This document shows positions 2,391 through 58,550 of a stretch of 64,000 nt of DNA, in pieces; within the stretch, counting starts at the first letter, position 1, and each line of letters opens with the position of its first letter. The DNA comes from Protoeuglena noctilucae. Its lineage: Eukaryota. A program made the position numbers and the translations under genes. The stretch spans positions 248,001 to 312,000 of the forward strand of contig OY253690.1 of assembly GCA_958009085.1 (NCBI GenBank). The letters run 5' to 3'. The notes beneath the pieces are model-generated. The model did no database searches and had not been told where the DNA came from. It saw only the letters and a program-made list of their open reading frames with translations.

Positions 2391-2479
2391 CGGGGATGAG
2401 TGAATGAGTGAATGGGCGAAGAGAGAGAGATAGGGACCAGAGATAATGCGTCGTTGGAAAAGCGGCTCCGCTCACGGCG

Positions 2480-3082
2480 GCGTTGAAGTACCGCGGATAA
2501 GGCCTGAGGCTTTGTATGCGGGGCTAGCACAGTCCCAGCTGACGCACCGGCCACGGCAGATTGCCTTGATGCGGGCGCAGTGCCCAGGGCGTCAACCGTG
2601 GACTGGCGCAGGTGTGCCGGAGGCTCGTCGCTCCTGTCGCGAAGGGGATCGTGCTGGTGACAGTGGCGTACTAGAGGTCCAGGAGTGTGTACACATGCAC
2701 TGCGCACGCTGGAGTCGGCGTCGGCGGAGCAAAGCAGGGACGCAGCTGGTGTTTGGGAGGCCGGAGGAGCTGAGCGGACCCGCTCGGGGCCGACAGCGAC
2801 GCGGTAGGTGAGACGGAGGCGCTTGGAGTTCGTGGTGGCGCGGATGAGCCGAGCAGACGCGCGCTGCAGCCCCACCCAATCATGGAGCACGGTAACGTTC
2901 GTGTCCCGTTCGACGCAGCGGGGTGTCGGAAGGGGCTGTCGGTGGCCATGTCGGCGGACGTAGATACGGAGGCGTCGTTAGAGGGGATGACCGTCGGTGA
3001 GGCGAGCACGGGAGGGCTGCGCTCCTGCGTTGGGAAGTGCAACCTTGCAGCGACATTTGGCGCGTCCCGCTGGGTCGCGCAG
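2480..3082 (+). repeat. Upstream flank of F-box-ankyrin copy A, homologous to 39030-39612
   Basis: Shared blocks include CGTGGACTGGCGCAGGTGTGCCGGAG, GGACCCGCTCGGGGCCG, GCGACGCGGTAGGTGAG and AGCCGAGCAGACGCGCG. Confidence 0.85.
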
Positions 3083-32619: not shown

Positions 32620-35600
32620 ATGACCACGGCCGGTGCCGGCGCGCGCGCGCTGAACGCGCTTATGATTCCGGAAACGGACCTACAGGTGGGCGCCAAGCTC
32701 GCCGACGGAGGGCAGGGCGAGGTCTTCCGGGGCCGGTGGCGCAACCGGGACGTGGCCGTCAAGCGTTTGCATGCGGACATATCGGGCGTTGCGCGGGGGC
32801 AGCTGGGCGCGGTGCTGAACCGGGGCATGAAGGAGCTCGAGCGGATGGCGGCGGCGGCCACGAGCAGCACCCGCGTGTGCCCGTGAGTGGCCTGGGAAGC
32901 TGGCTGCAGGCATGCACAGCTGCGAGGGGCACTGCCTGCGAGCCCCTCCGAGGCGCAGCACCTGTCGCCCGGCCGCAGGCTTCTGGGTTTTACGGTCAAG
33001 GATGCCCAGCTGCACATCGTGATGCCGCTGTACGAGCGGGGGTCGCTGGTGCGGCGCATCGCGGAGCGGGGGGCGGGGCTGCGGCCGGAGGAGGTGGTGG
33101 AGGTGGCGGTGCAGCTGCTGGAGGGGCTGCAGGACCTGCACCACCGCGACATCGTGCACAGGGACATCAAGCCGGCCAATGTGCTGGTGGACGACCAGGG
33201 CAACCTGCTGCTCGCGGACTTTGGGCTGGCGACGGTGGTGGAGGGGTCGATGGGGGTGTCGGTGAGGCGGGGGTGCCACGCCTGCCGAGGGATGCATGCT
33301 TGCATGTCACGGGATCGTATCGAGTGCTGGCCTGGTCTTGCGTCGGCAAGCGCCCAGCATCGATTGTCAGTGGTGTGGCCGCAGTGGACGTCCCTGGACG
33401 GCACACGCATCGGCGCGGTGGGCACGGCTCAGTATATGGCCCCCGAGCAGTGGGACACGGAGCTGGGGCGCCCCACGCCAGCGTCGGACGCGTACGCAGC
33501 GGCGGCGACGCTGTGCCACGTGGCGTCGGGGCAGCCGCCCTACGGCAACAAGCAGATGCAGCAGATCATGACGGACGTCCTGGTGCGCAAGCGGCTCCCG
33601 ACGGTGCCAGACTCGGTGCCGGAGCCGCTGCGGTCGGCGCTGCGGGGTGCGTTGCAGTTCCACGCCGCGGATCGGACGAGCGTGGCGGAGATGCTGAAGG
33701 CGGCGAGAAAATCAAGGTGAGGGACAGAGACATGTGGCTTTCATGCGGGAAGACTGCCCACATGTGCGGCAGCTCATGGTTGCTGTCCGCCAGCCCCCTG
33801 CAGCCTGGCGAAATGCTGCGTGTGCAAAAAGGATGCGGATGTCCAGCTGACGGTGACGTGCAGTCAAGGGGCGCACCGGGTGTGCGGGGAGTGCCTGGCT
33901 GTCAAGGTGGGGACGCTGGCCGACAGCCGGGTGGCGTTCACGGCAGAGGGGCACCTGCAGTGTCGGAAGTGCACAGGGCAGGCGTGCGAGGGGGAGCTGT
34001 TTGCCCACGAGGTGGTGGCCAAGACACAGCACGACCCTGAGGCGGGCCGGCGGTTTCTGAAGGCCAGCCAGCAGCACGCGGCGGAGGCGGCAAAGGCCGT
34101 GAGTGCGAGGGAGGTGGAGGAGCTGCAGAAGCGCCTTCTGGAGGTCACGAAGCGGAGCGGGTCGGAAGCGGAGGCCGTGGACGCGCACCGGAGTCTCGTG
34201 GAGGAGCTGAACGTGAAGCGGTGCCCGTGGTGCTTGGCGGACTGCAGGGAGGACGCGCATCGGCACGTGGCCAGCTGCACGCGCAACCCGCGGAGGCTGA
34301 GCGTGTCTGAGACGGAGGCGAAATTTCGGCAACACGAGGCAGAAGAGGAGCGGATGCGCGTGCGATATGTGAGAGGCAACGTGCCGTGGGGGCAGCGGGC
34401 TGTGTGGGAGAAGGCGAATGGGCTGCCAGCAATTCGGGAGGCACGGATGCAATGGACGGACGTGGAGGCGGAGACGGGGATGGGGTGGCAGGGCGGGGCG
34501 TCGGGAAACAAGGTGAGGATGGGGGGAGTGAAAGTGGTGCACCAATGGTGGGTGCGTCGTGACAGATGGACAAGGCGGGTGACATTGGATTTGTAAGCGG
34601 ATGTGATTGCACCCTTGCGTGTGAAAAGCCAGTGAGGTACGAGCACATGTAGATGTGCCGGAGATGGAACCGATTGTGCTGTGGATGCAGGGTGGGCGGG
34701 ATAGGGACCCAGGGCCTGCCGTGGTGCAGCCCACTCCGGGCCAGAATGCCGCGGAGACGTCGGGGAAGCTCTTGCGGACGCTGGCTGGGCACTCAGATAT
34801 GGTGCACTCGATAGCCGTCTCCCCTGACGGGCGGTGGGTGGCGAGCGGGTCGGAGGACAACACGATCAAGGTGTGGAATGCAGCAACGGGGAAGCTCGTG
34901 CGCACGCTTTCTGGGCTTTCACAGGGTGTGGGATCGGTGGCCTTCTCCGTCGACGGCCGGTGGCTGGCGAGCGGATCGTGGGACGGTGCAGTCAAGCTGT
35001 GGGACACGGCGACGGGGAAGCTCATGCGGACGCTTTACGGGCATTCAGAGGGGGTGGCATCGGTGGCCTTCTCCCCCAGCGGTGTGTGGGTAGCGAGCGG
35101 GTCCGCGGACAGCACGGTCAAGCTGTGGAGCACAGCACCGGGGGAGATCGCGCGCACTCTGGCTGGGCATTCTGATACGGTGGCATCGGTGGCCTTATCA
35201 CCTGACAGCCGGTGGCTGGCGAGTGGGTCGTGGGATAGCACGGTCAAGCTGTGGGACGCAGCAACGGGGGAGCTTGTTCGCACGCTGTCTGGGCACTTAC
35301 AGTGGGTGCGCTCGGTGGCTTTCTCCCCCGACGGGCGGTGGCTGGCGAGTGGGGCATATGACAGGACGGTCAAGCTGTGGAACGCGGCGACAGGGGCGGT
35401 CGTGCGCACAATGGAAGGGCACTCAGACTGGGTGTACTCGGTGGCTTTCTCTCCTGACGGGCGGTGGGTGGCGAGCGGGTCGTTGGACGAGACAGTCAAG
35501 ATGTGGAACACGGCGACGGGGGAGCTGGTGCACACACTGTATGGGCACTCTGGCTCTGTGTGGTCGGTGGCTTTCTCCCCCGACGGGCGGTGGGTGGCGA

Positions 35601-35653
35601 GCGGGTCGGTGGATACAACGGTCAAGCTGTGGAACGTAGGAACGTTGCGCTAG
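32620..35653 (+). CDS. Protein kinase fused to a RING-like Cys/His domain, a second Cys/His cluster and 7 WD40 repeats; exons approx. 32620-32882, 32979-33261, 33385-33716, 33804-34512, 34691-35653
   Basis: GGQGEVF, VAVK, HRDIKPAN, DFG, GTAQYMAPE; CCVC..CSQGAHRVCGEC..CRKC; CPWCLADCREDAHRHVASC; seven 42-aa GH..WD repeats. Splice phases are consistent across all junctions. Confidence 0.85.
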
Positions 35654-36073: not shown

Positions 36074-36273
36074 NNNNNNNNNNNNNNNNNNNNNNNNNNN
36101 NNNNNNNNNNNNNNNNNNNNNNNNNNNNNNNNNNNNNNNNNNNNNNNNNNNNNNNNNNNNNNNNNNNNNNNNNNNNNNNNNNNNNNNNNNNNNNNNNNNN
36201 NNNNNNNNNNNNNNNNNNNNNNNNNNNNNNNNNNNNNNNNNNNNNNNNNNNNNNNNNNNNNNNNNNNNNNNNN
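36074..36273. other. Assembly gap (200 N)
   Basis: Run of N. Confidence 1.
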
Positions 36274-39503: not shown

Positions 39504-41078
39504 ATGTCGGCAAGGGCTGTGACCGTCGGTGAGGGCGCGCAAGAGGGCTACGCTCCTGCGTTGGACGTGCAGCCTTGCAGCGACATGTGGAGCGTCCCGC
39601 TGGCTCGCGCAGGGTGGGACGACCTGCCCAGGGAGCTGCACCGCGAGGTCCTGCGGCTGGTGCCCCTGCGCGACGCGACGGCGGCGCGGGGGGTGTCGCC
39701 GCAGATGCGCGACCAGGTGGACGAGGTGTGGAGGGCGTGGGGCATCCGGGCCACGGCGGAGGACAGGCAGAACGCCGTTCTAAGGGGATTGTTCCGTGCC
39801 GTTCTCTTGACGGAGCTCGATTTCGGTCCGCTGATGGTCTACGCGTTCCAGGGGTCCCACGCGCACCACCTGGCGAGCCTGGGGCTGTGGTGGCTGGCCC
39901 TGCTGGTGGCGGAGGGGCCGGACTTCAACGGAGTCACGTGGCATGTTGCCGAGTATCGGCTCCCGGACCAGTCACCGCTGATGGTGGCGGTGCGGGCGCG
40001 GCGGCCGGTGGGGCGGGGGGCAGACGGCAAGGTGCAGTGGGCGTACGCGCTGGGGGACGGGGAGGTGGCGCGGGCGGTGCGGGTGGCGGTGGCGACGGGG
40101 GCGGATGTCAATCGGCGACTGGACAGCACGTGGACGCTGATGACGTACTGCGCAATGCGGGGGTGCTCAGAGGCGGTCAAGGCGTGTCTGGCGGCGGGGG
40201 CGGAGGTGGATGCGGGTTGGGGCTGGAAAACGGCGCTGGTGCACGCGGCACGGGGGGGTCACGAGGCGGTGGTGGAGGCGCTGCTAGAGGCGGGGGCGTC
40301 GGCCGCAGTTGGGCGTGATGGCCGGGATGAGACGCTGACCTTGGTGTGCGATGGGCATCCGACGCCGGGCATCGTGCGGCGGCTGGTGGAGGCGGGGGCG
40401 GACGTCAACTCTCGTAATCACAGTGGGACGGCCCTCATGCATGCCGTACGCCGTGGCAACGTGGCCGTGATGGAGGTTCTGGTGGAGCTGGGGGCAAACG
40501 TCGAAGTAATTCACGACCTTGACTGGGCTGACATGCCCCATGCTCTGACAGGGGAGGTGGTACGGTGGCTGGTGGCACGGGGGTTGAGAATCCAATTCGA
40601 CGAAGGCTACGATTCCCCACTGGGTTGGGCTTGCGGACAAGGTCGAGTCGATGCTGTCCGCGCCCTGATTGAGCTGGGTGCGGACGTCAACGGCAAGACC
40701 GATAATGGTTGGGCGCCTCTCCATTTCGCGGTGCGCTCTGAAGAGCATCAGGCTGTGGAGATCACGCAGCTGCTGCTGGGTGCGGGGGCGGACGCCGGCG
40801 CCGCCGATGAAAGCGGCAGGACGCCCCTGCACGATGCCCGCCACGCCGCGTGCGTGGACCTGCTGCTGGACGCCGGGGCAGACCTGGAGGCACGTCTCTG
40901 GGACCACAGGACGCCGATTTACATAGCCGCGATGGACAGGCATGAAGACATGACCGAAGTCGTGCTGCGTATGGCCGACCGCGACGCGGACATGGTCAAC
41001 ACGGGCGGAGAGCCGGGGCTGGTGATGCGCAGGGTGGAGGAGCTGCGGGCCCAGCGCAGCCGTGGCCAGGCCAGCTGA
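39504..41078 (+). CDS. F-box plus ankyrin-repeat protein, copy C (exons 39504-39528 and 39613-41078)
   Basis: MSARAVTVG-WDDLPRELHREVLRLVPLRD, ankyrin repeats, and the same C-terminal NTGGEPGLVMRRVEELRA as copies A and B. Confidence 0.9.
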   Translation: MSARAVTVGEGAQEGYAPALDVQPCSDMWSVPLARAGWDDLPRELHREVLRLVPLRDATAARGVSPQMRDQVDEVWRAWGIRATAEDRQNAVLRGLFRAVLLTELDFGPLMVYAFQGSHAHHLASLGLWWLALLVAEGPDFNGVTWHVAEYRLPDQSPLMVAVRARRPVGRGADGKVQWAYALGDGEVARAVRVAVATGADVNRRLDSTWTLMTYCAMRGCSEAVKACLAAGAEVDAGWGWKTALVHAARGGHEAVVEALLEAGASAAVGRDGRDETLTLVCDGHPTPGIVRRLVEAGADVNSRNHSGTALMHAVRRGNVAVMEVLVELGANVEVIHDLDWADMPHALTGEVVRWLVARGLRIQFDEGYDSPLGWACGQGRVDAVRALIELGADVNGKTDNGWAPLHFAVRSEEHQAVEITQLLLGAGADAGAADESGRTPLHDARHAACVDLLLDAGADLEARLWDHRTPIYIAAMDRHEDMTEVVLRMADRDADMVNTGGEPGLVMRRVEELRAQRSRGQAS

Positions 41079-41759
41079 CCTGGCTGGAAACGGCGGCTGC
41101 GGCTGTGTTGGTGTTGGTGTTGGTGAGTTGACGTGCTGGCTTGCCAGACTGGGCCGCGGTGCAGGTGGCAATGTGGCTGACGTCTTTTACAGGAGCGTGC
41201 TTGAACCGTGTCTCTGTGCGCATGGCGCAGCTGGGGCGTAGCAGTGCGTGATGTCTGGAGTGATTACAGCCCTGTGTCCCGCACTTGCACCATTGACGTG
41301 GTGAGGCGGCGTGCCAGGGAGCAAGGTGGCGTGCCAGTCATGGGCAGGCTCGACGGCGACGACGTGCTGGGCAGAGACCGAGCTGTGGAGCAGTGATGGC
41401 GGAGTGTGGTCTTGGTGGGCTGTGCTGCGGCGTCACACGGCAGGCCGTAAGAGCATCGTCGCTGTGGTCGGGCGGGTGGCAGCGCAGTCCGCACCCTCCT
41501 CGCCCCCTCGGCTGTTGGCGCGCGTTTGACAGTTAAGCGGAGTTGGTTTCAACCCTGCTGCATGCGGGGCGCAGGCGCACACGCGCCTATCAGAGGCTGC
41601 ATGGCCAGCTGCAGCGTGACGGCATAGGCACGCTCGCCGCGCCTCATCGCTCCACGCCCTATGCCACCTCTCCGCTCATCCCAACTTTTTCATAACCGCC
41701 CCACCCCTTCACCACCTCTCCGCTCATCCCCACTCCTTCACCACCACCTCTCCACCCCC

Positions 41760-44700
41760 TCACATGCCGTCACCCCCACCCACCCCAAGCGCCCGCCAGG
41801 GCACCACCCCCCCCACCATCCCATGCAGCGCATGCGCCACGCCAGCCAGCACATCCGCCACCGCCACAGGCTGCCCCGCCACCCCCGCCCCTTCTCCCCA
41901 GAACCCCACTCCAATCGCCTCTCCACCCACCCCCACTGATCTGCCAAAGAACGCCACCCTGCCGTACCGCCCCCAGAGACTAGCAACGGTGGATTCCACG
42001 ATATCTGTGCCTATGAGCAGTTTGCGGGAGAGGTGGCGGTGGTGGGCGGCGGTGGGGGGGAGGTCGGCGGGGCGAGCGCGGGCGCGGCGGCAGGCGGAGC
42101 GGTGGGGGTCCTGGGGGGAGAGTGAGATGGGGTGGAGTGAGTTAGGATGAATATATAGGTATGTAATTGACTGGTGTGTCAATATAAGGCATGGTCACAG
42201 CATGGCATAGTTGATGGAGCGGTGGGGGCCCTGGGGGGGAGAGTGGGGTGGGATTGAATGAGTATATGATAAGATGAAATGATTGAAACATGAATGTAAG
42301 GCATGGTCACAGCATGGCGTGGCATGATGAGGGGTCAAACCGTGACTGCCCTCTCCCCATCCCTGCCACCCTTACCTCCCCCTTCCGTCGCCCCCCAACA
42401 CCACCACCACCCAACACCACCCTCACCTCCCCCTCCCTCACTCCCTGCAGCACGAACGCCCACTCGAACGTCCCCGCCCCCGGATGAACCACCACATCAC
42501 GCCCATCCCCCACTCGCAACCCGACACCCCACGCAGGCTCCACCGCTGCCCTCGCTCTGGCCAATGCCTCTTTGGCAGCTTGGGCGATGACGGGGATGGC
42601 GGCGGGGAGTATGCCGCGGATGGGGGCGGGTGGCGTGGGGGTGGCGTGGGTGGTGGGGCAGGAGAGGGTGAGGGGGGTGGAGCTGCGGGTGGGGTAAGGC
42701 TAGGTGTGTTGGTGAGAGGGTTTTCAACGTGCAGTTGCATGCAAGCAGAACTCTCTCCCTTTTTCATGCCATCTCACTTGCGCCCACGCACCCACCGCCC
42801 CCGTCACCGCTCCTAACAAACACACACCCCGCATCCCACCCCACTCTCCCACTCCCCACCCCACCATCCACACACACCCCACCCCCACCCAAACCCCATC
42901 TCACCTATCCCACCCCGCCACTTGTCCCAACGCAGTCACCCACCCCCTCGCCCCCGCCCCCATCCTCCCCCTCTCTCTCATCTCTTTGCAAGCATCCACC
43001 ACGATCGCCTCAGCCGCCACCCCCGCCACCATGCTGGCCGCGCCGAGGGAATCGGATCCCAGCCAGGATTTGAACATGCGACAGGCGGCGGCGAGGGCGG
43101 GGGAGTGGGCGACGGCGGTGGAGGTGGCGTGGGCGAGGAGGTCGGCTGGGGGGGGAGGGGAAGGGAGAGGTGAGAGTGAGTGATAGATGATAAGGGTGAG
43201 AGAGAGAGAGAGAGAGAGGTGAAGGGGAGGGGAGGTGGCGTGGGCGAGCAGGTCGGCTGGGGGGTAAGAGGGGAGGGGAGAGAGGATTTTAGTTGATGAT
43301 GAGATAATTGGATGGGAAGGTGAGAGTAGGAGAGACAGGTGCGATGAGGGGGTGAGTTTGAGAGAGAGAGGGGAAGCATGACAGCGCAACACAGGACATC
43401 ACTAGCTACGACCCACCCATCTCACCTGCCCCCTTCTCCCCTTCCTCTCCCGCCCCCGGCACCACCTCCACCTCCACCACACACCATACTCAAACAACCA
43501 CCAACACAGTCACCAACACAGTTACGATCACAATCATCACTCACCCGCACTCCGCTCCCCCTCTTCCCCCGCCCCCGGCACCACCTCCACTTCCACCACC
43601 CGCCCCTCCCACGCCACCCGCACGCAGTCGCGGCTCGCCACGGCCTCCCCCTTTGGGATCTCCGGGCCCAGCACAGACGCCACGTGAAGATGCAGGGCGG
43701 CCAGCATGTGGCTGCAAGCGATCGTAAGAAGGGGGGGATGAATGGGGGGTGTTAATGGTGTTATTGATGGGTTGATAATGGTGGCAGTATCAATGCCATC
43801 GACAGTTACTAGTATTGTTGGTATCGATGCCACGTGGAGGTGCAATGCGGCCAGCATGTGGCTGCGACGCGAGGGGAGGGGTTGCTAGTGTCAGTGCTGC
43901 TGTCACTTGACTGTCTATCATTGACGGTATCAATATGTAACTTTACAAACGCACACACATACTCGCACCCCTCACCTCCTCTCCTCCCCATCGCTGGGCA
44001 TCGCGGACCCCGCATCCACGCGCACCGTGACGGGCAGACCATGCACGGCGCGGGGGAGGGGAGTCGAAGCGTCGCGGTTTGCATTTGAATTTGAATGGGG
44101 GAGGAGGAGGGGGTGCTTGCGGGGGGGGTGGAGCTGCGGGGGGGAGTGAGGGGGTGGGAGTGAGGATGAGATGGCAGTGGGGGTGGGGATGGAAGTGAGG
44201 GTTGGAAAAGTGTCTGCCATCCCAACCCTTCCTGATTGCAACCAGCACATACCATTATCCATATCACCAATCGCATATCCCATCCCTAAGCATCTCACCT
44301 GCGTGGCCGCTCTTGTTGCTTTCCCCCCCTCCACCCGGTGCACCCGCATCGGCAGCTCTGGCGTGGCCGCCAGTCTGCCCATCACTGCCTGAAACCGCCC
44401 CACCTCCCGCACCCACCCCACGCCAGTGATGTCGTCAGAGTGAGGGGAGGGGGAGGAGGAGAGGGGGGGGAGGAGAGCTGGGGGGGAGGGAGAGAGGGGT
44501 GGGTGGGGGTGGGAGTGAGTGGGGGGGAGGTGAGGGGGAATGGGGTTGTGCTGCTGTTGCTGTTCACCATTACACATCTATAATGACCAAGTACCATTCA
44601 GTGGTACTTCATCCCACACCACTCAACCCCCCACTCACCCTCCACACCCCCCTCCTCCACCACTGCTCCCATCTTGCTCAATGCGAATGCCACCACATCT

Positions 44701-47068
44701 GCCACCACAGTCGTGTCCCCGTCCCCCTCCCTCCACACCACGGCGTGGAGGATGCCCTCGGGGAAGTGACGCAGCTCGCATCTGAGTAGATGAGAGTGAG
44801 AGAGTGTGAATGAGAGAAAGAGCGAGTGAGAGAGTGAGTGAGTGAGGGTGGTGGTGGTGGTGTTGGTGAGAGTGATGAGAGTGGGGGAAGTGACGCAGCT
44901 CACGTCTGTGGGAGTGAATGGTGACTGTTTACATAGAAATATGCACTAACAAAGCCTCATTATACCCATCAACCCCCCCCCCCCCCCCATTCCCCCCCGC
45001 CCAAATCCTCGCCTGTCCCCCCACATCTCCCGGAACGCCGGCACCTCCTCCTGTTTCATGCACTTGTCCGCCGCCAGAAACGCCCTCTGGGGGTCCACCA
45101 CCACCCCCACGACACGCGGCTCTGGCGCCAAATCTGGCGCCGACTCAGGGGGGGACGCCAACCGTCGCCCCCCGGTCCCTTTCCCCTTCCTCCTTGTTTC
45201 AGGCACATCGTCAATGCCAGTAAACGACTCCGATGGCATCTGCATTGACGCCTGCCCCCCCGGTCCCTTCCTCCTCTTTACCCCCCGCACGCCACCGTCG
45301 CTGTCGTTGCCACCACCACCATAGCTGTCACCACTTGTGTCATCACCCTTGGTTGAATTTTGAATGGTGGGAATGGCTGCTGCTCTCACGGACACGGCGC
45401 GTGGTCCCAGGTGGGCGGCAGCCAGGGACTCGACCTCTGCCTCGATGGAGGGGATGGGACTGGGGAGAGGGGGAGAGGTGGGGTGGGGGTGGGGGTGAGG
45501 GTGAGGGTGTGGCAGTGGGGGTGGCAGTGCGGGTGGGTGTGGCAGTGAGGGTAGGAGTGGGGGTGGCAGTGGCAACCTCACCTGTCGACACGCAACCGCA
45601 CCCCACATTGTACCATACATCCACTACACATTCCCACACATCGCACATCCCCAACACCCCCCACACAAACACCCCCATCTCCATCCTCACCGCCCCTCCG
45701 CCTCGCATGTGACTTGGAACACAAAGTCGAACGCCCCCACCGCCCCCCCCTCACTCCCCGGCCCCCCACCCATCACCGCCCTCTTCACATCTACCCCAGC
45801 ATCCTTCGCACACTCTTTGATGTGCGCTATCGCGTGTTGCGATGCGTGGTGGGTGAGTGACGTGGGAATGCCCTTGGCGATGGCTCTGAGGGCGTCGGAT
45901 GCCAGGGTGAGGGCCCCCGTGGCCACCAGGCCGGAGTCTGTGATTTGGGGGGGGGGAGGTGGGGTGATAGGAGGGGTGGTGGTTGGGGTGGCAGGTGGGT
46001 TGGGATGTGGTCGAAGTAAAGGTGAGGATGAGGGCACACACACCCATTCCCACTCTAACTCCCACTCCCACTCCCACTCCCACTCCCACTCCCACTCTGA
46101 CTGCCACTCACCCCTCTTCGCCAGTCTGACGCACAGGTCCTCCAGGCACCGCCCGTGCACCCCCCCCGCCCCCCACGCCGCCCCGACCCGCCTGGCCCAC
46201 GCCTTGACAAGCACAGCCGCATCGCGGACAGCGGTGGCGGAGGAGAGGGCAACGCTGCGGGACTCGTCTCTCTGAGATGGGATGAGGAGAGGGAGAGGGT
46301 GTTCAAGGGGTCAGGGAGGGGTGGGTGAGGTGAGTCGAGGGATTTGGGAGGGGATGGAGTGGGAGTGGGTGACATGAGATATGGAAGGGGTGTGCCACCC
46401 ACACCGCACCACAAGTGCACACCCAGACACCCACCCCCACCGCCCCCCCTCACCCTCTGCCCATCCCCCACCGCCTCTGCCGAGTCTGCCAGATGCACCA
46501 GCACCGCTGTGTGTGTGCGTCCGTCCACCACACGCACGAGGGGGGAGGGGCGACCGCAGTCGTCCCTGCGTCACATGGTAAGAGAGGGGGATAGTGGGGG
46601 TCCGTGAAGGGGTGGCAAACGGTGGTGTGCATTTGGGGGTAGGGGCGACTGCGGTCGTCCCTGCATCCCATCACATGGCGAGAGAGGGGAGCACTGGGTG
46701 TGAGTGCGTTTGCTTGGTGTACTTCACTGTACCACGTGACATAGCAACACACCACACCACAGCACAACGGCCCTCTCGTCTCCTCACCGGGACACGCGGC
46801 ACGCGGGACCCAGCGCGCGGCCCAGCACCCGCGCCACGCCCTCGAGTCGCTCCGCGCGATCCTTTTCAGATACCGACGACGCTCCCGGAAACACCAGGAC
46901 GTCCCCCGCCGCCCCGGCCAGCGCGGTCCCGGTCACCACGCTGCCTACTGCAGCAGCCGCCCACCCGGGGCCCGCGGAGGCGAGGGCCGCGGTCGCCGCG
47001 CGGCACAGCTCGTGGAGATGACTCCGCTCCGCATCCCCGGCGCGATGACGCTCCACCGCCGCGGCCAT
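41760..47068 (-). CDS. NOL6/Utp22 (Nrap family)-like protein, divergent, multi-exon
   Basis: Degenerate nucleotidyltransferase-like AVGSVVTGT..GDVLVFP; FREMWGDRCELRHFPEGILHAVVW resembles Nrap FWGEKAELRRFKDGSI.ESVVW; ACRMFKSWLGS; C-terminal YGRVAFF..GGEAIGVGF. Confidence 0.7.
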
Positions 47069-47783
47069 CTGCGGGGAGGACGGCCGCAATGCGCTTCGAG
47101 CCCGCCGCTGCGATGCCAAGCGACGCGGCGCGCACGGCGGACGGCCCGTCGTCACCTCGTGGTCGATGCCGACGCGCGGAGGGGCGCGCATCGCGGAAAC
47201 AGCGCTCCTATCGCCGCAGCTTTGCTTGCGTTGGGAGCAGCGGCCTGGACGCGCGGGGATGCCGATGCCAAGCGCCTGCCCTCAATCTCCCCGGCAGTCT
47301 TCGCAATCTGCCGCGTCCGTGCAGCGCGCTGATGGAATCTCCCGGCGGCAAGAGGCTATCTTTAGTCACCGCTAGGTTAGGGCTCTCCCTTCACCGGCAC
47401 GCCGCCCGCGCTCTCTCGTCGCCGGGGCCCCGCGACGGCGCGCAAACTCGAGCGTCGTGATCCGGTCCGCGTTACGAATCCGCTTGACTGCCGAGGACGA
47501 TCACCGCGCGCGTTTCGGGGAGCTTTACCGGAGTGGCACGTGCGAGACGCCTTCCTCCTCCGGGGCTGGCTCAGGCGCCTTCCTTTCGATCCCGCTCCCT
47601 TCGTAGCGTGTCGGAGTCGTCGTGGAGCGAGCGGCGGGCCCCTCGGGCGCCCCAGCGCGCCCCGTCGCCGGCCCCGACGCGGGCGGCACGGGCGGCGTCC
47701 CAAAGATTTCGGTTTATCCCCTGGAGCAGGCTGTCAGCGCGTTCAGCGCGTCCGCGGCGACGCAAGTCGCCGAGCCGCTGGAG

Positions 47784-50700
47784 ATGGAGAAGAACGAGTC
47801 CTCCCGCGCCAGCCGCAACAACATCGAGGCCAGGTGAGGGATCTCCCGGCCGGACCCGGCGAGCCCCCCCAGGCGTTGGCGGGACAGCATGGCACGGCCG
47901 GCGAACCCCGCGGGCGCGTCCAATCCGGGCCCCGCGCCGCGGCCCGGGCCTCCCCCGCGGAGCACACCTTTTTTGAACTCCTCGCTTGCAGCCTGCATGG
48001 GGAGAGCGCCGCGCGGAGGAGGGCCATTCAGGCGAGCAAACAGCTAGGTTTTCACATGGGCGGATGTGGGCGGGCCGGGGCGCGCGCGCGGGGCCCGCGA
48101 GCCGTCCGGTATGACGTGACCGTGTCTCGGTTCGCATTTCGAACCCGTCGCTGTCGCCCTTCCCCCCGCGGACGCGGCGCTGCGCCTCCGGAGGGGCACC
48201 AGCACCGCCTCTCCTCATGGCCCGCCGCGGCGCCCCTGGGTCACCCGCGCGCCCCCGGCCTCGCCCGCGCAGGAGCTTTTATTCTTTGCGAGTGTCGGGG
48301 ACATCCAGCGATGTAAGAAGCTCGTCGAGAGCTGGCGCCTGAACGGTGGGTCGCGCGGGGGCTCGTTGCGCGCGCGGCGCGCGGCGAGGCGGGGGGCGCG
48401 ACGGGCTTTGGGATGCGACAGTGTTGTTTCATCGCTCCGCATTGCTCCGTAACCCCCGCAGTGGCCAACGCGGACTGTTGCGACTACGACTCGCGCACGC
48501 CCCTCCACCTCGCCGCCTCCGAGGTGACCCGCGGCCCCGGCGGCGCATTTATCGTTTCTTATTAGTATATGTAGCCCATCGCTGTGCCGTTTTTGCCGCC
48601 ATCGCGTCGTCTCGAGACGAACAGTTGCTAAATACCACGAAGTATCGACGCGTGATTGCTTCCTCTCCCCCCGCTTCCCCCCAGGGCGCGTGGGTGGTGA
48701 CGCAATGGCTTTTGGAGTCCGGCGCTGCCATCAACGCGTTAGACCGCTTCAACCGCACCCCTCTCGAGGATGCGGTGCGGGGGGAGTTTCTGGAAGTGGC
48801 GCGCCTGCTCATCGACCGTGGTGGGATGATCTTCCAGAGAGGCAAGCTCGTGTCCGTCGCCGACTCGGAGCTCAGCGGGTATTTGAACCTGCAGGCGCTG
48901 GGACTGACGCCTGGCTTCGAGGGGCTGGATTTGGATCCCGAATGGGAGATCGACCCGACCGAGTTAAAAGTGTTGGACAAGCTGGGGCAGGGGGAGTTCG
49001 GGACGGTGTTCAAGGCCAAGTGGAGGGGGTCGTACGTGGCGGTGAAGGCGAGTGGAGGGGGGGGTGGGGGGTGGGGGGGGTATGGGGGGGACTGGTTGGG
49101 GCAGAGCGGTGGTGTCGGTGGTGGGGCTGGAGGCGTTGTGTGTCAGCACTACCTCATGCACTGACTGCCTCTCCCCAGGTCCTCAACTCCAACGCCATTG
49201 CTGTTGGCGCCTTACTCCCACGCTCACTCACTAGCTCACTCACTCACTCACTCACTCCCTCACTCACTCACTCACCCAACACCCCCCCATCTCCCTCCCC
49301 CCCCAGGTCCTCAACTCTTCTGATTCCATCGCTCTCGGTGATTTCCGCACCGAGATCGGCATCCTGCGCCGCGTGCACCACCCCAACGCCGTGCAGATGC
49401 TGGGGGCATGTACCAAGAGCAAGCCCTACATGCTCGTGACCGAGTTCGTGCCGGGGGGGTCGCTCGCGGGGCTGTTCCGCATGGACAGGAGCCCCAGGTG
49501 AGTTATGCAGTTGACAGTTACTGATAGCGGTTGATATTGATGAGTCGATTGATGGTGGTGGTGTTAGTGGGGCTGTTTCGCATGGACAGGAGCCCCAGGT
49601 GGGTGTTACTATTATTACTACCATTATTATTACCATTACTGTCACTTTCATTCATCACCAATTATTCCCCCTCCCCTTCAGCTTGCGTCGCGTGTTGGAG
49701 ATGGCCCTGGACAGTGCACGTCGCATGTCGATTACAATTAGTACCACCATTACCATCACTAATCACTTATATCCCCCCTCCGCTCGCAGTCTCCGCCGTG
49801 TTCTGGAGATGGCCCTGGACATTGCGCGAGGCATGGCGTACCTCCACAGCACCGCCAAGGGCATCATCCACAGGGACCTGAAGCCGAGGTGAGAGTGGTT
49901 TTCAAATACAAAAATTATACTTAATTATTGCAGTATTAATCCATTTAAGCTCCATCTCAACTGTTGCACTGTTGCCCATGTATGCACATCGACCCCACTA
50001 CTACCGCTTCCCTGCAGCAACATCTCTTACAGTGGGTGTGGCTCCTACTGCAACTCCCCCGTGCAATCACAACCACCGACACACTTTCCCACTGGTTGTT
50101 GTCAACATCCCTTTCCCATCCATCGCAGCAACATCCTGGTGGGCGGCTCCTACTACAACTCCCCCATGGAGCTCGTCTTCCACACGGGCATCATCAAAAT
50201 CGGCGACTTCGGCCTCAGCAAGTCGCTGCCCGTGTTCACCAAGCAGGCGCCGGACCTGAAGGTGAGTGGAAGAAGGGAAGGGTTGATGTTGCCACTATCA
50301 ACTCAGCGCTAGCAACACACCGCCCACTAAGCCACCCTCCCACCACCCACTCTCTCACTACCACTGCCACTCGCATGCTATTTACCAGCTCTTGTTACTC
50401 ACTCACTTACCCTTCCCCTCTTAAATTCAAACAGGAGACGTACCACCTGACGGGGGGCACAGGGTCCTACCGGTACATGGCCCCCGAGGTGTTCCGCCAC
50501 GAGCCCTACAACAACAAGGTGGACGTGTATTCCTTTGGCATGATCCTATACCAGCTCATCGAGGGGGTGGTGCCCTACAACGGGACCAAGGTGAATGGCT
50601 GGGGGTGGTGGTGGCGGTGTGAATGCGACGGGGGGCGTCGTTGTGATAAATGCGACGCATCACAATCACAGAACAGCACCACGTAACAGCCACAGTGCAG

Positions 50701-51105
50701 CACGTAACACATACCCTACATCCCCCTCCTCCTCCCCTTCCCCCAGCCCATCCAGGCGGCCTTTGACGCCGCCCAGAGCCACCGGCGCCCCGAGTGGCGG
50801 CTGGTCTTCATGCTGCCAGAAGCGGCCGGTCGCGTCAGGCAGCTGGCGGAGCAGTGCTGGAGTGCGGACCCGCAGCACCGGCCGACGTTCGAGGGGGTGG
50901 CAGACGCGCTGGATGAGATGCTGGGGGGGCTGGTGAGGGTGAACCCAATAGTCACCACAGTCAACCATCGATTTACTTATACATACTCATATATACTATC
51001 TCTTTCTCCTCTCAGCCCCCCGAGGACCCCTCATGGCTCTACGCCCCCCGGCCCGAGTCCATGACCAAGAGGAGGGGAGCATGCGCGGGGTGCACCGCGA
51101 TGTGA
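47784..51105 (+). CDS. Ankyrin-repeat Raf-like protein kinase (plant ILK/VIK type), copy 2, C-terminus CTAM; start codon tentative
   Basis: LHGESAARRRAIQELLFFASVGD (homologous to copy 1), CCDYDSRTPLHLAASEG, WEIDP, GQGEFG, HRDLKP, DFG, TGSYRYMAPEVFRHEPYNNKVDVY. Confidence 0.9.
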
Positions 51106-52895
51106 AGATGGGAGATGCTGGTAGTTGATCGGAATAGCTATTGCTTACAGCAACAGCGATGCCGACCAAGGGGGGTGGGCGCGTGGGGTGGGCGACGATC
51201 GGTGACTCAGCAAAGGGGGGCGTGCGCGGGGTGCATCGAGATGTGAGATGCGATGGGAGACATCAGATTGACACTGGGGATGGCGTTCACGATGTCATCA
51301 ACCGTGTGGGGTAGGGTGGGCGACTGGTGGCCTAGCGGGGGGGGGGGGGGCGTGCGCGGGGTGCAGCGCGATGTGACATGGGATGGAAGAGACAGACATG
51401 GGGCTTGCTTGGTTTGACTATCATTGTCTGTAATACGAACCATGTGGGGTGGGGTGGGGTGGGGTGGGGATGGGGGTGACGATCGGTGACTGAGCAAAGG
51501 GGGGCGTGTGTGGGGTGCAGCGTGATGTGATGCGCGTGATGGGAGAGACAGAGAGGCAGGCACTGGCGGGGTTGGCGTTGACGAGAGTCGACCAGCCATG
51601 TGGGATGGGTGGGGTGGGGTGGGATGGGATGGGGTGGGGTGGGGCAACAACGAAACCACCCAGCCATGCAAGCGCTCCGTGTCGCGCCGGCAGCGAGCGG
51701 AGTCGACGCGCGGCCGTTGACATGACAGCGACACACAACACGCAGCTGCTCCGCGCTGCTTTGCGCTGCTTGCGTTGCTCACGCGACCTGCTTCACTTCA
51801 CGCGACCCTTTGTGTGCCGCCCGGCCCCCGCGTGCAAGGGGCTGCTTGCGTGCTTGCGCCAAACACCCCCGCACATACCCTGCCCGTGCTCGGTAAGGTG
51901 TCCGTTGGGCATAGAGCATGATAGTTAGTCCGTCAATTAGGACCGACGGCGCCAGGGTCAGAGTGACGAGCAGCCTGTGACTAGGGCGGTTGGGGCGATG
52001 GGGAGTGGCGCGAGATTACTCACTAGCTTACTTACTGGCTTAGTAAGTGTTACTTACCAGCCAACAACACCACCAAGCCGACCTGAGCCATCGCCGCAGC
52101 CACCCCTGCCAATGTCAATGCAGTGACCCCTACTGCCCGTCTTGCGGTTACTGTTACTGTTCCCTTTTCCTACTCCCCTTTCCCATCAACGCTCGTTGAA
52201 AGATCGCGTTCTCTGTTTCTATATCTTATGCTATGGGTACAATGTAGGGGTGGTGACTATGACACCTCAGTAACACATCTACAATGCCTGCTTAGATTAG
52301 TGACAAAGGAAGAAACTCTGAGAGTCGTGGGGTGCAAAAAGTGCAAAGCGCATTGGTGGGTGGGTATGGGGCTGGGCTGGGTGGAGCAAGGGGCAGTGCA
52401 GTGCAGTGTTGAGCAATACCATTCGATGCAATCAGCAAAGGGTGGCGTTGCGCAGTGGTTCGCTGGTGTTGTGTTGGTGATGCTGGGAACGAGGGCAGCT
52501 GCGGTGGCGGTGGCCGGCGGTGCGTTATGTAGAGAGGTGTAAGTTGGAGAGATGATGTGTTAGAAAGAAGATGAGATGAGATGAGAGACAAGAGACACTT
52601 GCAAGCAGTGTGACAGAAAATGTTTTGCTTTTCATTTTTCAAACAGCGAGGGGCGGAATGGCGTCACCCCATTTCCAGCCCCACCTACCCACCACCACCA
52701 CCACCACACTCCCCACCCCCCCACTCGCACACCCCACTACACTCTCATCAACACCCCGCATCACCCCCCACTCCCACCATACCCCCTCTCTCATCATCAC
52801 CCCTGCTTGGCCCTGGCCACCACCACCATCCCTACCACCACCACCGCTCCCCATCACCCATCCACATCCAATCACACCCATATCTCCCCCCATCT

Positions 52896-55800
52896 CTACC
52901 CCTGCTTGGCCCTGGCCACCGCCTCGGCCGCCGCCGCGGCAATCGACGCGTCGTTCGCGTTCGGCAAGTAGTAGTACTGCCCCTGCCCCGCCTTGGCGAT
53001 CTCCTGGGCGAACCCGGTCGATACGAACTTGTTCTCGGTGTCGATCACCAGCAGCTGCAGGCCGGCGGCATAGACCTTGCGGGACATGTCGAGGACCTGG
53101 GGGGGGGGGGTTGTGGGGGTGGTGAGTGATGTGGGGTGGGGTGAGTGGGGTGAGGGTGGGAGTGGGGGATGAGGGAGTGGAAGTAAGGGTGACTAGGGTG
53201 GGGGAGAGGCAGTGAAGGGTGTGTGAGGGTGAGGGTGGTGGAGGGGTGGTGAGGGGTTGGACACACCCACATTCAGCAAACACTTCCCCTATTTCAACCA
53301 CCATCACTCTCACACCTACTTACTCCATCACTCCCACATTCAGCCATAACTCCCATCTCACCTCCGCCCTCAGCTCCTCCGCCCCCATGTTCTTCTGTTC
53401 TTCTTGGGCAGCTCCCCCTCACACCCACACCCACTAACACACACACTAGCACACACCATGACAATTCAAATTCAAACATTCAAACACCCTTCTCACCTCC
53501 GCCCTCAGCTCCTCAGCCGCCATCTTCTCCTTCGGCGGCTCCCCCTCCGCTTCGTTGGCCTTGGACAGCGGCACGTTGGCACGACCATCCGTGATGAGCA
53601 CCACCATGGCGCGGCCCACGTCGCCCTGGGTGTCAGGAGAGATGGGGATAGTCGACATAGTATATATACACTATATGGCATTGTGTAGACTGCATGGCAT
53701 ATCGATGTGTATGGGATGGGTGGGACGGGGTGAGGACCACCGTGGCGCGGCCAATCTCCCATCCCATATCCCACCAACCACTCCCAGCCAGCAACAGCAC
53801 AAACAGTACCAGTCACAATCACACAACTCTTCCCCACTCTCACCTGCGCGAGTGCGTTCATGCCCGTCCTGGCCGCGAGCGACAGCCCGTGCGCCAGGGG
53901 CGACCCCCCCCCGCACGGCAGCGTGTCCATGCGCTTGCGGGCCATCGAGATGGACTTGGAGGGGGGGAGCAGCACCTCGGCCTTGTCGCCGTAAAAGGGG
54001 ATCAGGCACACCTGGGGGGATGGGGGGATGGGAGTTAGGTGTTGGAATAAGAGTGAGTATGATGGTGAGAGTGGTTGTCAGTACTATGGTAAGTGCATCG
54101 GCCTTGTCTCCATAAAAGGGGATCAGGCACACCTGAGATGGAGGGGGAGATGGGGAGAGGGGAGGGTGTGCAGAGCTGCTTTAGTGATGGTGGTGAGCGA
54201 CAGCGCTGCACTGTGCAGCCGCATCCACACTCCCATCAGTACCATCATCACTCTCCCTCTCTGTTTATCTCTACTCATATACACCCACTCACCTGGTCTC
54301 TGCTCTGGTACGAGTCGGCCAGTAGCCGCATCACGGCCCCCTTGGCCGACGCCATGCGATTGAGCGCCATGCTGCCCGACGCATCCACCACAAAGAGCAC
54401 CAGCGCGCCTGCCTTGCGGGCCATCTTCTTGGCGCGCATGTCGGGCTCCTCCACAAACACGTTGCGGGAGGCCTGGGGGGGATGGGGGGGAAGGGGTGGG
54501 GTTGGGGTTGGTGTGGGTGGGTTAAGAGGGGGTGAGGGGGTGGGTTGGGGGGGTGAGGATGGGGGAGGGGGAGAGGGAGAGGTGTGAGCGTCAGGAATGA
54601 TTGCGAGACGGCTGGGAGTATCGAATAAAGTGTGTGCACAGTTCAAACACCCAACAAATACCCACTCGCCTTTCCCTCCCGGACCGCCTGCTCCCGCCTG
54701 CTGCGCTGGTACGGGGCTGCCGCCCTGAGCGTGGCGTCCACGGCCAGCCGCCGCACTTTGCCCTTGGGGAGGATGGGCTTGATGTAACGACCCCGGTCCT
54801 CGCTGAAGATCAGGTTCTTGGCCCTGGGTTATCAGTGCAAGGGGTGTTGCAGTCTTGTGCTTCTGGGTCACGTTGCGCTTGACCAATGAGGGAGTCCATT
54901 GGGCAAGGCACATGGCTGCCAACCACACACACCATCCCTCACCTCCCGTGCTGCTGCTGCTGCCAGGCCTCCATCTAAGTGCCCACCGCACACACCCACA
55001 CACTCCATCAATACACACACCCCCACTCCCTCACCTCCCGCTCCTCCCCTGCGCCCTCTGCTGCTGCTGCGCCATCTGCATCACGCTCGGGTCCATCACC
55101 ACCCCCTCCGTGTCAAACATGAACTCCTGCGGGATCTGATCCGATTCGGGGTCGTCCTCGTCGTCCTCTTCCTCGTTCTCGTCTTCTTCCTCCTGCTCCT
55201 CCTCCTCCTGTGTGGTTATTGGGGAAATGGGGAGGTGTGTTAGTATAAGTAATATAAATCATCTACTGCAATAGTACTGGTGCTGTAAGTACTGGATATT
55301 TACAATAGCAGGTGCCGCCAGCTCACCTCCACCACCTACCCCCACCCATCTACATTCGTAATCCACTTATCTATATATCTTATACTATATATATTATATA
55401 TAACCGATCCCCATCTCATCCCCCCCTCACCTCCTGCTCCCCGCTGTCCTGGGGCGGCGGGGGCGGCGGCGGCGGCGGCTGCTCCTCGGGGGGAGGGGGG
55501 TCCCTCAGCACACTCCTCGGCAATATCACCAGCTCCACCGCGCGCTGCAGGTCCTCCGGCTCCACCCGGTTGCGGCCTTCCAGGGCTGCGCACGCCTTGG
55601 CGACCCGCACGGCAAAGACCTCGGCCCGATGCCCCTGCACGCCCCCGCGGCGCGCCTCCTCCACCAGGTACTTGACCTGATTGGGGGAGGGGGGAGAGGA
55701 AGGTTATAAACATGTATATATAGTATTATATGAGAGAGAGGGTGAGTGAGTGGGGGTGGCAGTGAGGGAGGCAATCGGGGTGGCAATGAGGGTGAGGGTG

Positions 55801-58550
55801 GCCAGAAGAGTGGGGGTGGCAGCGTGGCGACCGACTTCAGGTACTCTCATGCCCATGCACCCGTCACTACTTCACTACATGCACCCACATTCCCCCTCTC
55901 ATTCACCTGCTTTGGCCCGATGGCGACCGTCTTCAGGTACTCGCGTGCGAATATGATGTTGGTCTTGAGCTCCTCCGTCAGCTCCGTCACCTCGCGGAAC
56001 ACCGACTGTTGGGGATGGGGGGGGTAATTGAAGTGAGAGGGATGGGAGAGGTGAGAGGTGAGAGGGGGGGCTTAGAGGGGTGGGAGTGGGGGTGAGAGTG
56101 GGATGGGGGAGGGGGTGGGAGAGGTGGATGAGGCACTGTGACGCTCTCCCTCACTCTGCACCATCACCACTTCTACTCAACCACTCACCCACTCCCTCAT
56201 CTACTGCCACCATATGTCATATAATAATTTTCAGTCATTCCCCATATATACACCCCCATCACTTACCTGCGGGTCGTCCTGGAACCTCTGCGCCATCTCC
56301 ACCGCCGCCACCCGCTCCTCGAACGACGCCGGCACGTCGCAGCTCAGCGTCACGGCCACGCGGTCCAGCAGGTGCTCGCGGAGGGGGCCCTCTGCGATGG
56401 TTGAGCATAGGAGAATACGAGTATATATTTGAGTATACTCCGGGTTGTAGGTGGCAATGAGCACACAGTCACTATCACCCCAAACAAACACCAATTAACC
56501 ATTCCATCTCCCCTCCCCCCCCCCCCCCCTCATCTCTCACCCTCCGGGTTGTAGGTGGCGATGAGCATGCACTCACTACCACCCCACAGCACCATCCAAT
56601 TAAGTAATGAGTAATAACCGCTCAATTATAACCACTCAACCACCCATCAACACCCCCCCTCACCCTCCGGGTTGTACGTGGCTATCAAAAGTGGCCGGCA
56701 GGGGTGGGAGATGGAGATTCCCTCCCTCTCCACCACGTTCACGCCGTCCGCCAGGATCGACAGCAGCAGGTTGCAGATGCCGTCGTCCAGCAGGTTCACC
56801 TCGTCCACGTAGAGGATGCCCCGGTGGGCCTCGGCGAGGAGGCCGGGCTGGAAAACCGTCTTGCCCTCCTGTTGGGGGGAGGGGAGGGGGGTGTCAAATC
56901 GGTGTTTAGATTGTGGGAATGGTATGTGAATGGATGCAAGTGGGTGTGAGGCCGGGCTGGAAGACCGTCTTGCCGTCCTGTTGAGTGGGAGATGGGGGGG
57001 ATGGGTTGGGGTGAGTTAAAGTGGGGGTAAGAGTGGGAGTGTGTGTGACAGGCCTAGCTGGTACACCGGTACTCACATCCACACCCATCTGTACATCTGT
57101 TATACTCATCACCCCCATCACCCCATCATACATCTGTTATACTCATCACCCCCCCATCACACTCTCACCTTCATTGACGCCTCGATGTCCACCGTCCCCA
57201 CCAGGCGGTCCTCGGTCACCCCCAGCGGGATCTGCACATAGGGAGCCTCCTTGACGACACGCACGGGGTCGGCACCGTTCAGGCGCTCGCGGAGGCCGTC
57301 CTCCCACTCCCCGGGGGAGTCTGGGGTGGGGGAGGGGGGTGCTAGTGGTGTTGAGCGGGGGTGGGGGTGTGTGGGAAGGGGGTTGGGGGTTGTTAAGGGG
57401 TGTTGAGAGGGGGGGTGTGGGGGTGTGGGGGGGGGTCGAGGGGTGTTGTGGGTGAGGGGGGGAAGGTGGTGTGAGAGATGCGGCTGAGAGAGGTAGGGGT
57501 TGAGTGGGGAGGTGGGGAAGGGAGGTGGTGTGATAGAGTTGAATGATGTGACAGGAAATCTGAGAACAATGGAGGGGAGAGATGGGGAATGAGGGAGGAG
57601 CGACGGAGCACGGTTGGTGTAGCGGCTGCGTTGCATGTGCACGTGCTGGGTATTGAGATAGGAGCGGTCCTTGCTGTCCATCCCCCCACTCCACCCCTCT
57701 CCCATCCCACACCGTCCCGGGAGGGGAGGGACAGACCGTCGCGTGAACCCATGCATGGGGTGCGTGGAGATGGGGAGAGCGGCACCGCTCGCTAGTACCA
57801 CCGGTAAGACATGCAATGGCGAGTGCGCGGACACATCAGTGGGCACGCACACCCCGACCACCCCCATCGCTCACCACTCTCCCGACTCCCCACACACACC
57901 ACACCCACTCCCCCTCTGCCCCACACACCCACTCACCCGGGTCCGCATTGCAGATGGACCCCTCGACGACCTCAATGGGCGGCAGCAGGGCGTGGATGCC
58001 CCTGGCCATGATGGACTTGGCCGTGCCACGCCTCCCCGCAATCGCCACGCCGCCCAGGTTCGTGTCGCACGCGCCCAGGAGCAGCGCCTGCGGGGAGACA
58101 CGATGAGCGCGCTGGGAAGAAAGAATGGAAACAAAGCGATGTGATGGTGACGACGCCCGGGCCGCGGCGCGCCTGCTTGATGAGCTGCTGGCCCACGACC
58201 GCGGCGAGCGGAAAGGTGCGGAGGAGCTTCAGCTGCTTGCTGTCGCTGCTCAAGAGGACGGAGGAAGACTGTTCCATCGCCTCGGCGGCCTTGGCTGCGG
58301 GCATGGCGAGGCGCTCGGCGTGTCGCACCACGGATAGAGTGCGCGCGTCCGCGCCCGCCCCGCGATCTCGTGGCCGAGGGCTGGCGCGGGGACGGTCACC
58401 TCGGTCCTCCGCCGAAGCCGCAACTGCCGCGATGGCGAGCGACCTCCCCGGCTTCCCCCATGGCGTCGCGCGCGCGGCCGGGCGCTGACCCCCGGGCCCA
58501 GCTGCCAGGCGCGTCGCGCCGGCCCACCAGGCGCAGCAGGCGCCCTTCAT
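52896..58550 (-). CDS. CHLD: Magnesium chelatase subunit D, nuclear-encoded plastid protein, multi-exon; start tentative
   Basis: [60 protein letters not shown], a polyproline/acidic linker, and the vWA motifs [14 protein letters not shown] and LITDGRANV. Confidence 0.97.

Follow-up and report, generated by a model that had tools for sequence, protein, structure and literature searches.

The closest described system to the arrangement reported here is the 37-bp minisatellite in intron 7 (IVS7) of the human F7 gene, in which the first unit reaches across the exon border and the 5′ pseudo-sites are silent (PMC1557585). The copies described below resemble it in that a repeat unit lies across an exon-intron border, copies of the splice site are left in the intron and the outermost site appears to be the one used. 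F7 IVS7 is one locus, with donors only and a VNTR of near-identical units (PMC1557585), whereas in the present genome donors, acceptors and stop codons are all copied, with one to three diverged extra copies, and about 5% of the predicted exon ends in blind picks are affected. Tandem copies of an exon-intron junction of the FGG type represent the same type of mutation; there they lead to aberrant splicing and disease, whereas the copies described here are tolerated, and are skipped where this was tested. In the Rogers model, introns are gained by tandem duplication of an AGGT site (PMC3265369; PMC2891723; PMC2812944; PMC3488318), and the model shares with the present case that a short intragenic duplication shapes intron sequence and that intron DNA resembles the flanking exon; unlike in that model, the copies sit inside existing introns and no new intron is made. 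Small tandem duplications have also been attributed to staggered breaks filled in by Pol α-primase/CST (PMC8355091), which by analogy may be a source of short head-to-tail copies here, but which alone does not explain a breakpoint 17–38 nt inside coding sequence. A genome-wide account of such copies in an alga was not found in the literature searched by topic. The copies, which we term echoes, most probably form a dense, lineage-specific class of the known junction-duplication type, here occurring genome-wide.

The locus compared with these systems lies in a 64,000-nt stretch of DNA (the window) on contig C23 of a 26.3 Mb genome in 27 contigs, one of them of plastid type. We take the organism to be a green alga, on the basis of plastid gene order. 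On the minus strand of the window, exon 9 of a NOL6-like gene starts at 43711, behind an acceptor AG ending at 43712, and its first 37 nt occur a second time from 43861, behind an AG ending at 43862, 150 nt away. The two copies are identical at 31/37 nt and are both preceded by CAG, and the repeat thus straddles the intron/exon border with the splice dinucleotide kept. The match scores 24.5, and when the same 37 nt were compared with 319 other acceptor flanks none reached a score of 14 (best 11.1). The differences (at 43696, 43695, 43690, 43687, 43678 and 43675) are 6/6 silent in the frame of the gene; as the sixth, at 43675, is the final base before the similarity stops, only five are surely within the copy. 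The preliminary description had reported an acceptor echo at exactly 150 nt with six silent and no replacement differences, together with a stop-free frame from the echo to the real exon, and realignment on the minus strand bore out both, with the frame across the echo open from stop to stop (ORF 43537-43884).

The tandem arrangement was also sought outside the assembly, and was found in single contigs of two metagenome runs, X5 (43487-44170) and X6 (43487-44116), both of which run through the two copies and show 0 differing letters and 0 gaps, which establishes the arrangement as real DNA. These runs represent two wild marine samples from one study, and differ from the sample whose runs contain every word of the region. 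The words of 48600-58400, with many echoes inside, were present at a fraction of 0.96 in X5 and 0.89 in X6, while runs X13–X23 contained almost none of the words of the region and were left out. Across 41600-58400 of the window (16.8 kb), a single letter at which the wild contigs of X5 and X6 depart from the assembly was listed, and the assembly genotype is thus abundant in these sea samples, with very little visible diversity.

The host gene (Table 1) likely belongs to the NOL6/Utp22 (Nrap) family. Positions 81-118 (13.6 bits) and 121-157 (18.5 bits) of Nrap_D3 match the adjacent exons 5 and 6, and positions 2-64 of Nrap_D5 (12.5 bits) match exon 10; each exon-wise match is under the Pfam cut-off, so that the NOL6-like label given previously has gained domain matches and remains likely, short of proven. 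Profile searches of the genome itself with Nrap D3, D4 and D6 gave no match, and a protein search with exon 5, PDB and the ESM Atlas yielded nothing useful for the label. An RNA contig (X9 record 21) covers exactly exon 5 (45013-45459). The gene carries four further echoes scoring at least 14, plus weaker ones, and in the duplicated unit upstream of exon 12 an intron segment is well kept between 42181-42206 and 42293-42318. The intron at 43544-43146 (minus strand) has a donor echo as well as an acceptor echo, so that a second GT..AG unit is nested inside it, bordered by a copy of each exon end.

Table 1. Coordinates of the exon 9 echo, its likely NOL6-like host gene and the genes used for comparison (positions in the window).
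Feature	Position	Strand	Basis
NOL6/Utp22 (Nrap)-like gene (family likely), 12 exons, 913 codons open	41760..47068	-	Exon model, Nrap domain matches, RNA contig on exon 5
Exon 9 (167 nt) of the NOL6-like gene, source of the echo	43545..43711	-	Open in 12-exon model, codon score 18.0
Intron 8 (264 nt, GTGAG..CAG), predicted, holds the exon 9 echo	43712..43975	-	Inferred from sequence
Spacer, non-coding C/A-rich 3′ part of intron 8, ends in the real acceptor AG (43713-43712)	43712..43824	-	Codon score -24.3, GC3 0.37
Exon 9 echo, 37-nt copy of exon 9 start, own CAG before (AG 43863-43862)	43825..43861	-	Sequence
Donor echo 119 nt downstream, a copy of the final 60 nt of exon 9 and of GTGAG	43426..43485	-	Repeat family D6
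Exon 10 acceptor echo of 26 nt, in frame and stop-free, lying 111 nt upstream	43231..43256	-	Echo scan
Exon 6 acceptor echo of 22 nt, lying 124 nt upstream	44884..44905	-	Echo scan
Exon 2 acceptor echo of 26 nt with three replacement differences, lying 95 nt upstream	46635..46660	-	Echo scan
Unit duplicated ahead of exon 12, with an echo of the exon start near 42230	42181..42318	-	Repeat family D9
Magnesium chelatase D subunit gene, intron 1 to stop codon, 7/12 introns with echoes	52898..58172	-	Domain matches, RNA contigs
Kinase gene, last 33-35 coding nt including stop echoed three times, 141, 271 and 425 nt downstream	51073..51530	+	No splice site involved

Echoes are not confined to this gene. 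A scan of the window and 92 nuclear stretches (874 kb), using a crude exon finder that predicted 331 exons, gave 62 echo hits, of which five were dropped before counting (one from another exon, one microsatellite and three with a doubtful site, frame or extent), leaving 57 pairs at 47 sites, i.e. exon ends. The finder returned 1 false hit in 1912 swapped flanks, and the sites are spread over 8 of the 23 nuclear contigs sampled. The density is 16 sites per 104 exon ends in the window versus 16 per 324 in 525 kb of blind picks, and scaling up suggests several hundred echo sites per genome. Expressed per 100 kb, the window, richer than any other stretch sampled, has 25 sites, compared with 6 for the remainder of its contig and 3 for the blind picks; the density is patchy and follows intron density in part only. 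Spacing is mostly 50–160 nt (median 105 nt), the splice site is retained in 23/28 acceptor and 22/29 donor echoes, and introns with echoes are longer (median 374 nt, n = 16, versus 236 nt, n = 76; p 0.019). Donor echoes are in frame in only 3/29 cases (p 0.004, uncorrected), none of them stop-free, whereas acceptor echoes show no depletion (9/28), and in-frame donor echoes may be scarce because in-frame mis-splicing is selected against. Two stop codons have echoes behind them as well, three at the kinase gene and one at the chelatase gene, where the last 25 coding nt recur 99 nt past the stop, and a splice site is thus not required.

Several further repeats were noted in the same material. Two minisatellite-like arrays start at an exon end plus donor, one with units of 52/54 nt (L014, 6096-6370) and one with four copies (L016, 3470-3720), and these are the closest look-alikes of the F7 intron 7 minisatellite. 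Runs of 200 N occur at 36074-36273 of the window and at 5457-5656 of L017, both in echo-rich stretches of lower GC. Coding repeats are found in the window at 34761-35644, which includes a 126-nt array of about seven units, and at 3700-5000 and 40000-40800 (all plus strand), and we presume these to be a WD40-like array and two ankyrin-like clusters. A search of the genome with 43500-43900, which skips simple repeats, matched only the region itself and the local donor echo; an introner-type mobile intron was rejected, as this search showed no dispersed family of the region.

The differences between exon pieces and their echoes were classified in the gene frame. For the nearest echo at each of the 47 sites, 49.3 silent and 59.7 replacement changes were counted in 410 codons (45% silent), with 4 stop codons within echoes, and comparison of echo with echo gave 5 silent and 13 replacement changes. 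If the echo alone mutated, 24–28% silent changes would be expected, which is rejected by the 45% seen, whereas a neutral echo next to an exon that takes silent changes at the same rate would give 39–44% (p 0.12–0.48). The pooled divergence is neutral-looking, and agrees with the decay of an unused copy next to an exon in which only silent changes are tolerated. The all-silent pattern of the exon 9 pair is not a property of the class, and on the same counts we rejected a copy held under purifying selection as an alternative exon. Within the exon 9 pair the rarer codon is the exon's in three cases and the echo's in three, indicating that both copies have changed. The probability that all changes are silent is 0.014–0.08 for five and 0.006–0.05 for six, and with five or more differences at 6/47 sites, one all-silent case is, by our arithmetic, expected with a chance of about 1 in 10 to 1 in 3; luck is the most likely source of the all-silent changes. 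The echoes in the window are more silent than the others (23:14 versus 26:46, p 0.014; p 0.085 without the exon 9 echo), with the frames outside the window coming from the crude exon finder, where wrong frames would inflate the replacement counts.

The window also contains a magnesium chelatase D subunit gene, for which we assume the name ChlD from its chelatase-plus-VWA layout, and in which splicing of echo-bearing introns could be read. In RNA contigs of two runs from one study (X9 and X10), in which rare forms are dropped, 7/7 echo-bearing ChlD introns joined the outer donor to the outer acceptor. Three of these introns (model codons 495, 551 and 594) share their positions with other algae, and the echoes were thus added to old introns. 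The echo test applied to the ChlD genes of other algae (12 of 80 related metagenome loci, some redundant) gave 1 weak hit in 48 intron-like gaps, and the class is nearly absent from the other algae tested (1/48 introns). Intron gain by AGGT duplication was rejected on these shared positions, and also on the exon 9 echo, which lies in a GTGAG..CAG intron with its donor 114 nt upstream, and in which the copied 37 nt contain no AG|GT. The closest ChlD relatives found (L097, with a match at 1513-3489, and L098; 81% identity) have the gene without introns, unlike more distant relatives, which share intron positions with the window gene. GC-AG introns are common in the window (58172-58088, 54669-54473 and 45012-44782, all on the minus strand, and 49049 on the plus strand), two of those in ChlD are backed by RNA joints, and among predicted donors GCGAG ranks third in frequency (24/236).

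The copied exon piece measures 17–38 nt at 45/47 sites, whereas random breakpoints predict that 27/47 would be no longer than 45 nt; either selection removes longer copies because they interfere with splicing, or the place of the breakpoint is itself set. Mean identity is 0.92 for the exon pieces, and 0.77 for the intron halves versus 0.72 in controls, with 0/45 intron halves at 90% or more, and a simple equal-rate clock fails to explain this disparity. The fast divergence of the intron halves could reflect slippage in low-complexity sequence combined with detection bias, a divergent template, or gene conversion. Intron halves were more alike than controls in 28/62 pairs, high-complexity islands were shared in 14/47 pairs versus 10/470 controls, and some sites hold three or four serial copies, which together point to head-to-tail duplication at some of the sites. 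The intron half of the exon 9 echo is not recognisable as a copy (z 0.7), which fits an old copy. ChlD introns have a G-rich 5′ end and a C-rich 3′ end in 11/12 cases, so that each unit consists of a coding piece followed by a G-rich tail on one strand. A G-quadruplex trigger was considered and is unsupported, as the signal is mixed: acceptors with echoes have a raised G-run score (1.47 versus 1.15, p 0.002), donors with echoes do not (0.84 versus 0.99), and donor echo sites have fewer GGG runs (p 0.014).

We consider it fairly probable that the exon 9 echo is what remains of a short head-to-tail duplication, an unused and decaying copy of a class that is frequent in this genome. A tandem duplication of ~150 nt would have taken in the 3′ portion of intron 8 with its acceptor, together with the opening 37 nt of exon 9, and extra copies of this kind would survive where they land in non-coding DNA, with the spliceosome keeping to the outermost site. 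Afterwards the exon would take silent changes only and the echo any change, for which ~40–45% silent differences would be expected, and the 6/6 at exon 9 would lie in the upper tail. The low-complexity intron half would turn over faster, with the resemblance being lost there first, and the enzymatic cause may have been staggered breaks with fill-in or replication slippage.

Two explanations deny that the echo is such a relic. Two alleles merged in assembly would presumably give silent-only differences, but the X5 and X6 contigs that span both copies without a differing letter or gap rule out a haplotype error as the origin, and leave this explanation a negligible probability; the echo codons, which the preliminary description proposed to look for as exonic alleles, were also not seen as such in the X5, X6, X9 and X10 contigs, in which rare variants are dropped. 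The other explanation is that the upstream acceptor is used, yielding a NOL6 isoform that is 50 aa longer and in which selection on the protein keeps the changes in the echo codons silent. The echo does keep its AG, in frame and without a stop, and its acceptor score of 11.1, against 12.8 for the real acceptor, is within the range of real sites, so that it still looks usable and minor use is possible; the real site outscores the echo in 24/28 acceptors and 23/29 donors, with a matrix trained on predicted real sites. Besides the 6/6 silent differences, in-frame open acceptor echoes as a group are more silent than the rest (9:3 versus 10:20, p 0.02), but this contrast disappears without the exon 9 echo (4:3, p 0.39). 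A used acceptor is not supported by the exact 150-nt spacing, the open frame or the all-silent differences: echo spacings are multiples of 3 in only 15/62 cases, 7/28 acceptor echoes keep the AG in frame and stop-free, and the stretch that would be added is non-coding, the spacer of 114 nt having a GC3 of 0.37 and a codon score of -24 versus a GC3 of 0.91 in the rest of exon 9 and 0.87 in long coding stretches. In RNA contigs, moreover, all seven testable ChlD echoes were skipped, and the contig on the real exon 10 of the NOL6-like gene itself (X10 record 1, 42905-43146) does not extend to the in-frame open echo at 43256. Among the 15 RNA joints listed, of 41, none ends at an echo, with the joint of intron 8 lying outside those 15. 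Contig depth in the bin 43283-43843 fits the 167-nt exon (4.1, 2.8) better than the extended exon (2.3, 1.6), but as contig depth is unable to rank parts of the gene this fit was given no weight. A tandemly duplicated alternative exon was likewise rejected, since only 37/167 nt are copied before a non-coding spacer begins; by eye, no donor consensus follows directly behind the echo. We regard a functional isoform made from the echo acceptor as very unlikely.

Other explanations accept an unused copy and differ in how it arose or was maintained. Repair of an intron break, or recombination, could have copied the exon end from a divergent allele or homologue, followed by decay, and such a copy would differ from the outset, at silent positions of the exon piece and in its intron half. 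This agrees with exon parts that are 0.92 identical next to intron halves near background, and with the richness in silent changes of the exon 9 echo and the window subset, and an exon piece of 17–38 nt might resemble a minimal pairing length. The pooled silent share is, however, explained without prior divergence, several echoes are identical to their exon, multi-copy arrays resemble serial local duplications, and with one listed letter difference in 16.8 kb of wild contigs no divergent allele is in view, which makes a divergent template unlikely. Alternatively, gene conversion or weak selection acting after a local duplication might keep the exon piece exon-like while the intron half drifts, in line with gaps being needed in 3/47 exon pieces only and with exon identity not predicting intron-half similarity (Spearman 0.09). 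Replacement and stop changes nevertheless build up freely, detection itself favours well-kept exon pieces, and slippage in low-complexity tracts can presumably account for the faster intron change, and we judge this course of events to be decidedly improbable. None of 599 candidate relatives of exon 9 in metagenome contigs was confirmed, which leaves the exon 9 echo without an outgroup.

We tentatively raise the possibility, itself rather doubtful, that the duplication is lineage-specific and positioned, starting or ending 17–38 nt inside the coding sequence and reaching ~75 nt into the flanking non-coding DNA on its G-rich strand, whether at a donor, an acceptor or a stop codon; a nucleosome edge, the start of an Okazaki fragment and a footprint of co-transcriptional splicing are candidate causes. 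The exon 9 echo by itself matters little; the class and its size rule count for more, and the narrow length range of the copied exon pieces is a clue to where such duplications start. For annotation the class is a warning, as an echo resembles an alternative acceptor or donor and may be taken for a haplotype error. It also supplies numerous natural cases in which two nearly identical splice sites compete, on which splice choice can be tested in an alga that is abundant in the wild, and it illustrates across the genome how short border-spanning duplications enlarge existing introns. If the duplication is indeed positioned, old introns would have been lengthened from their ends at hundreds of sites, with the choice of the outermost site making the process harmless, and each echo would be a dated snapshot of its exon, from which silent and neutral rates could be measured within one genome.
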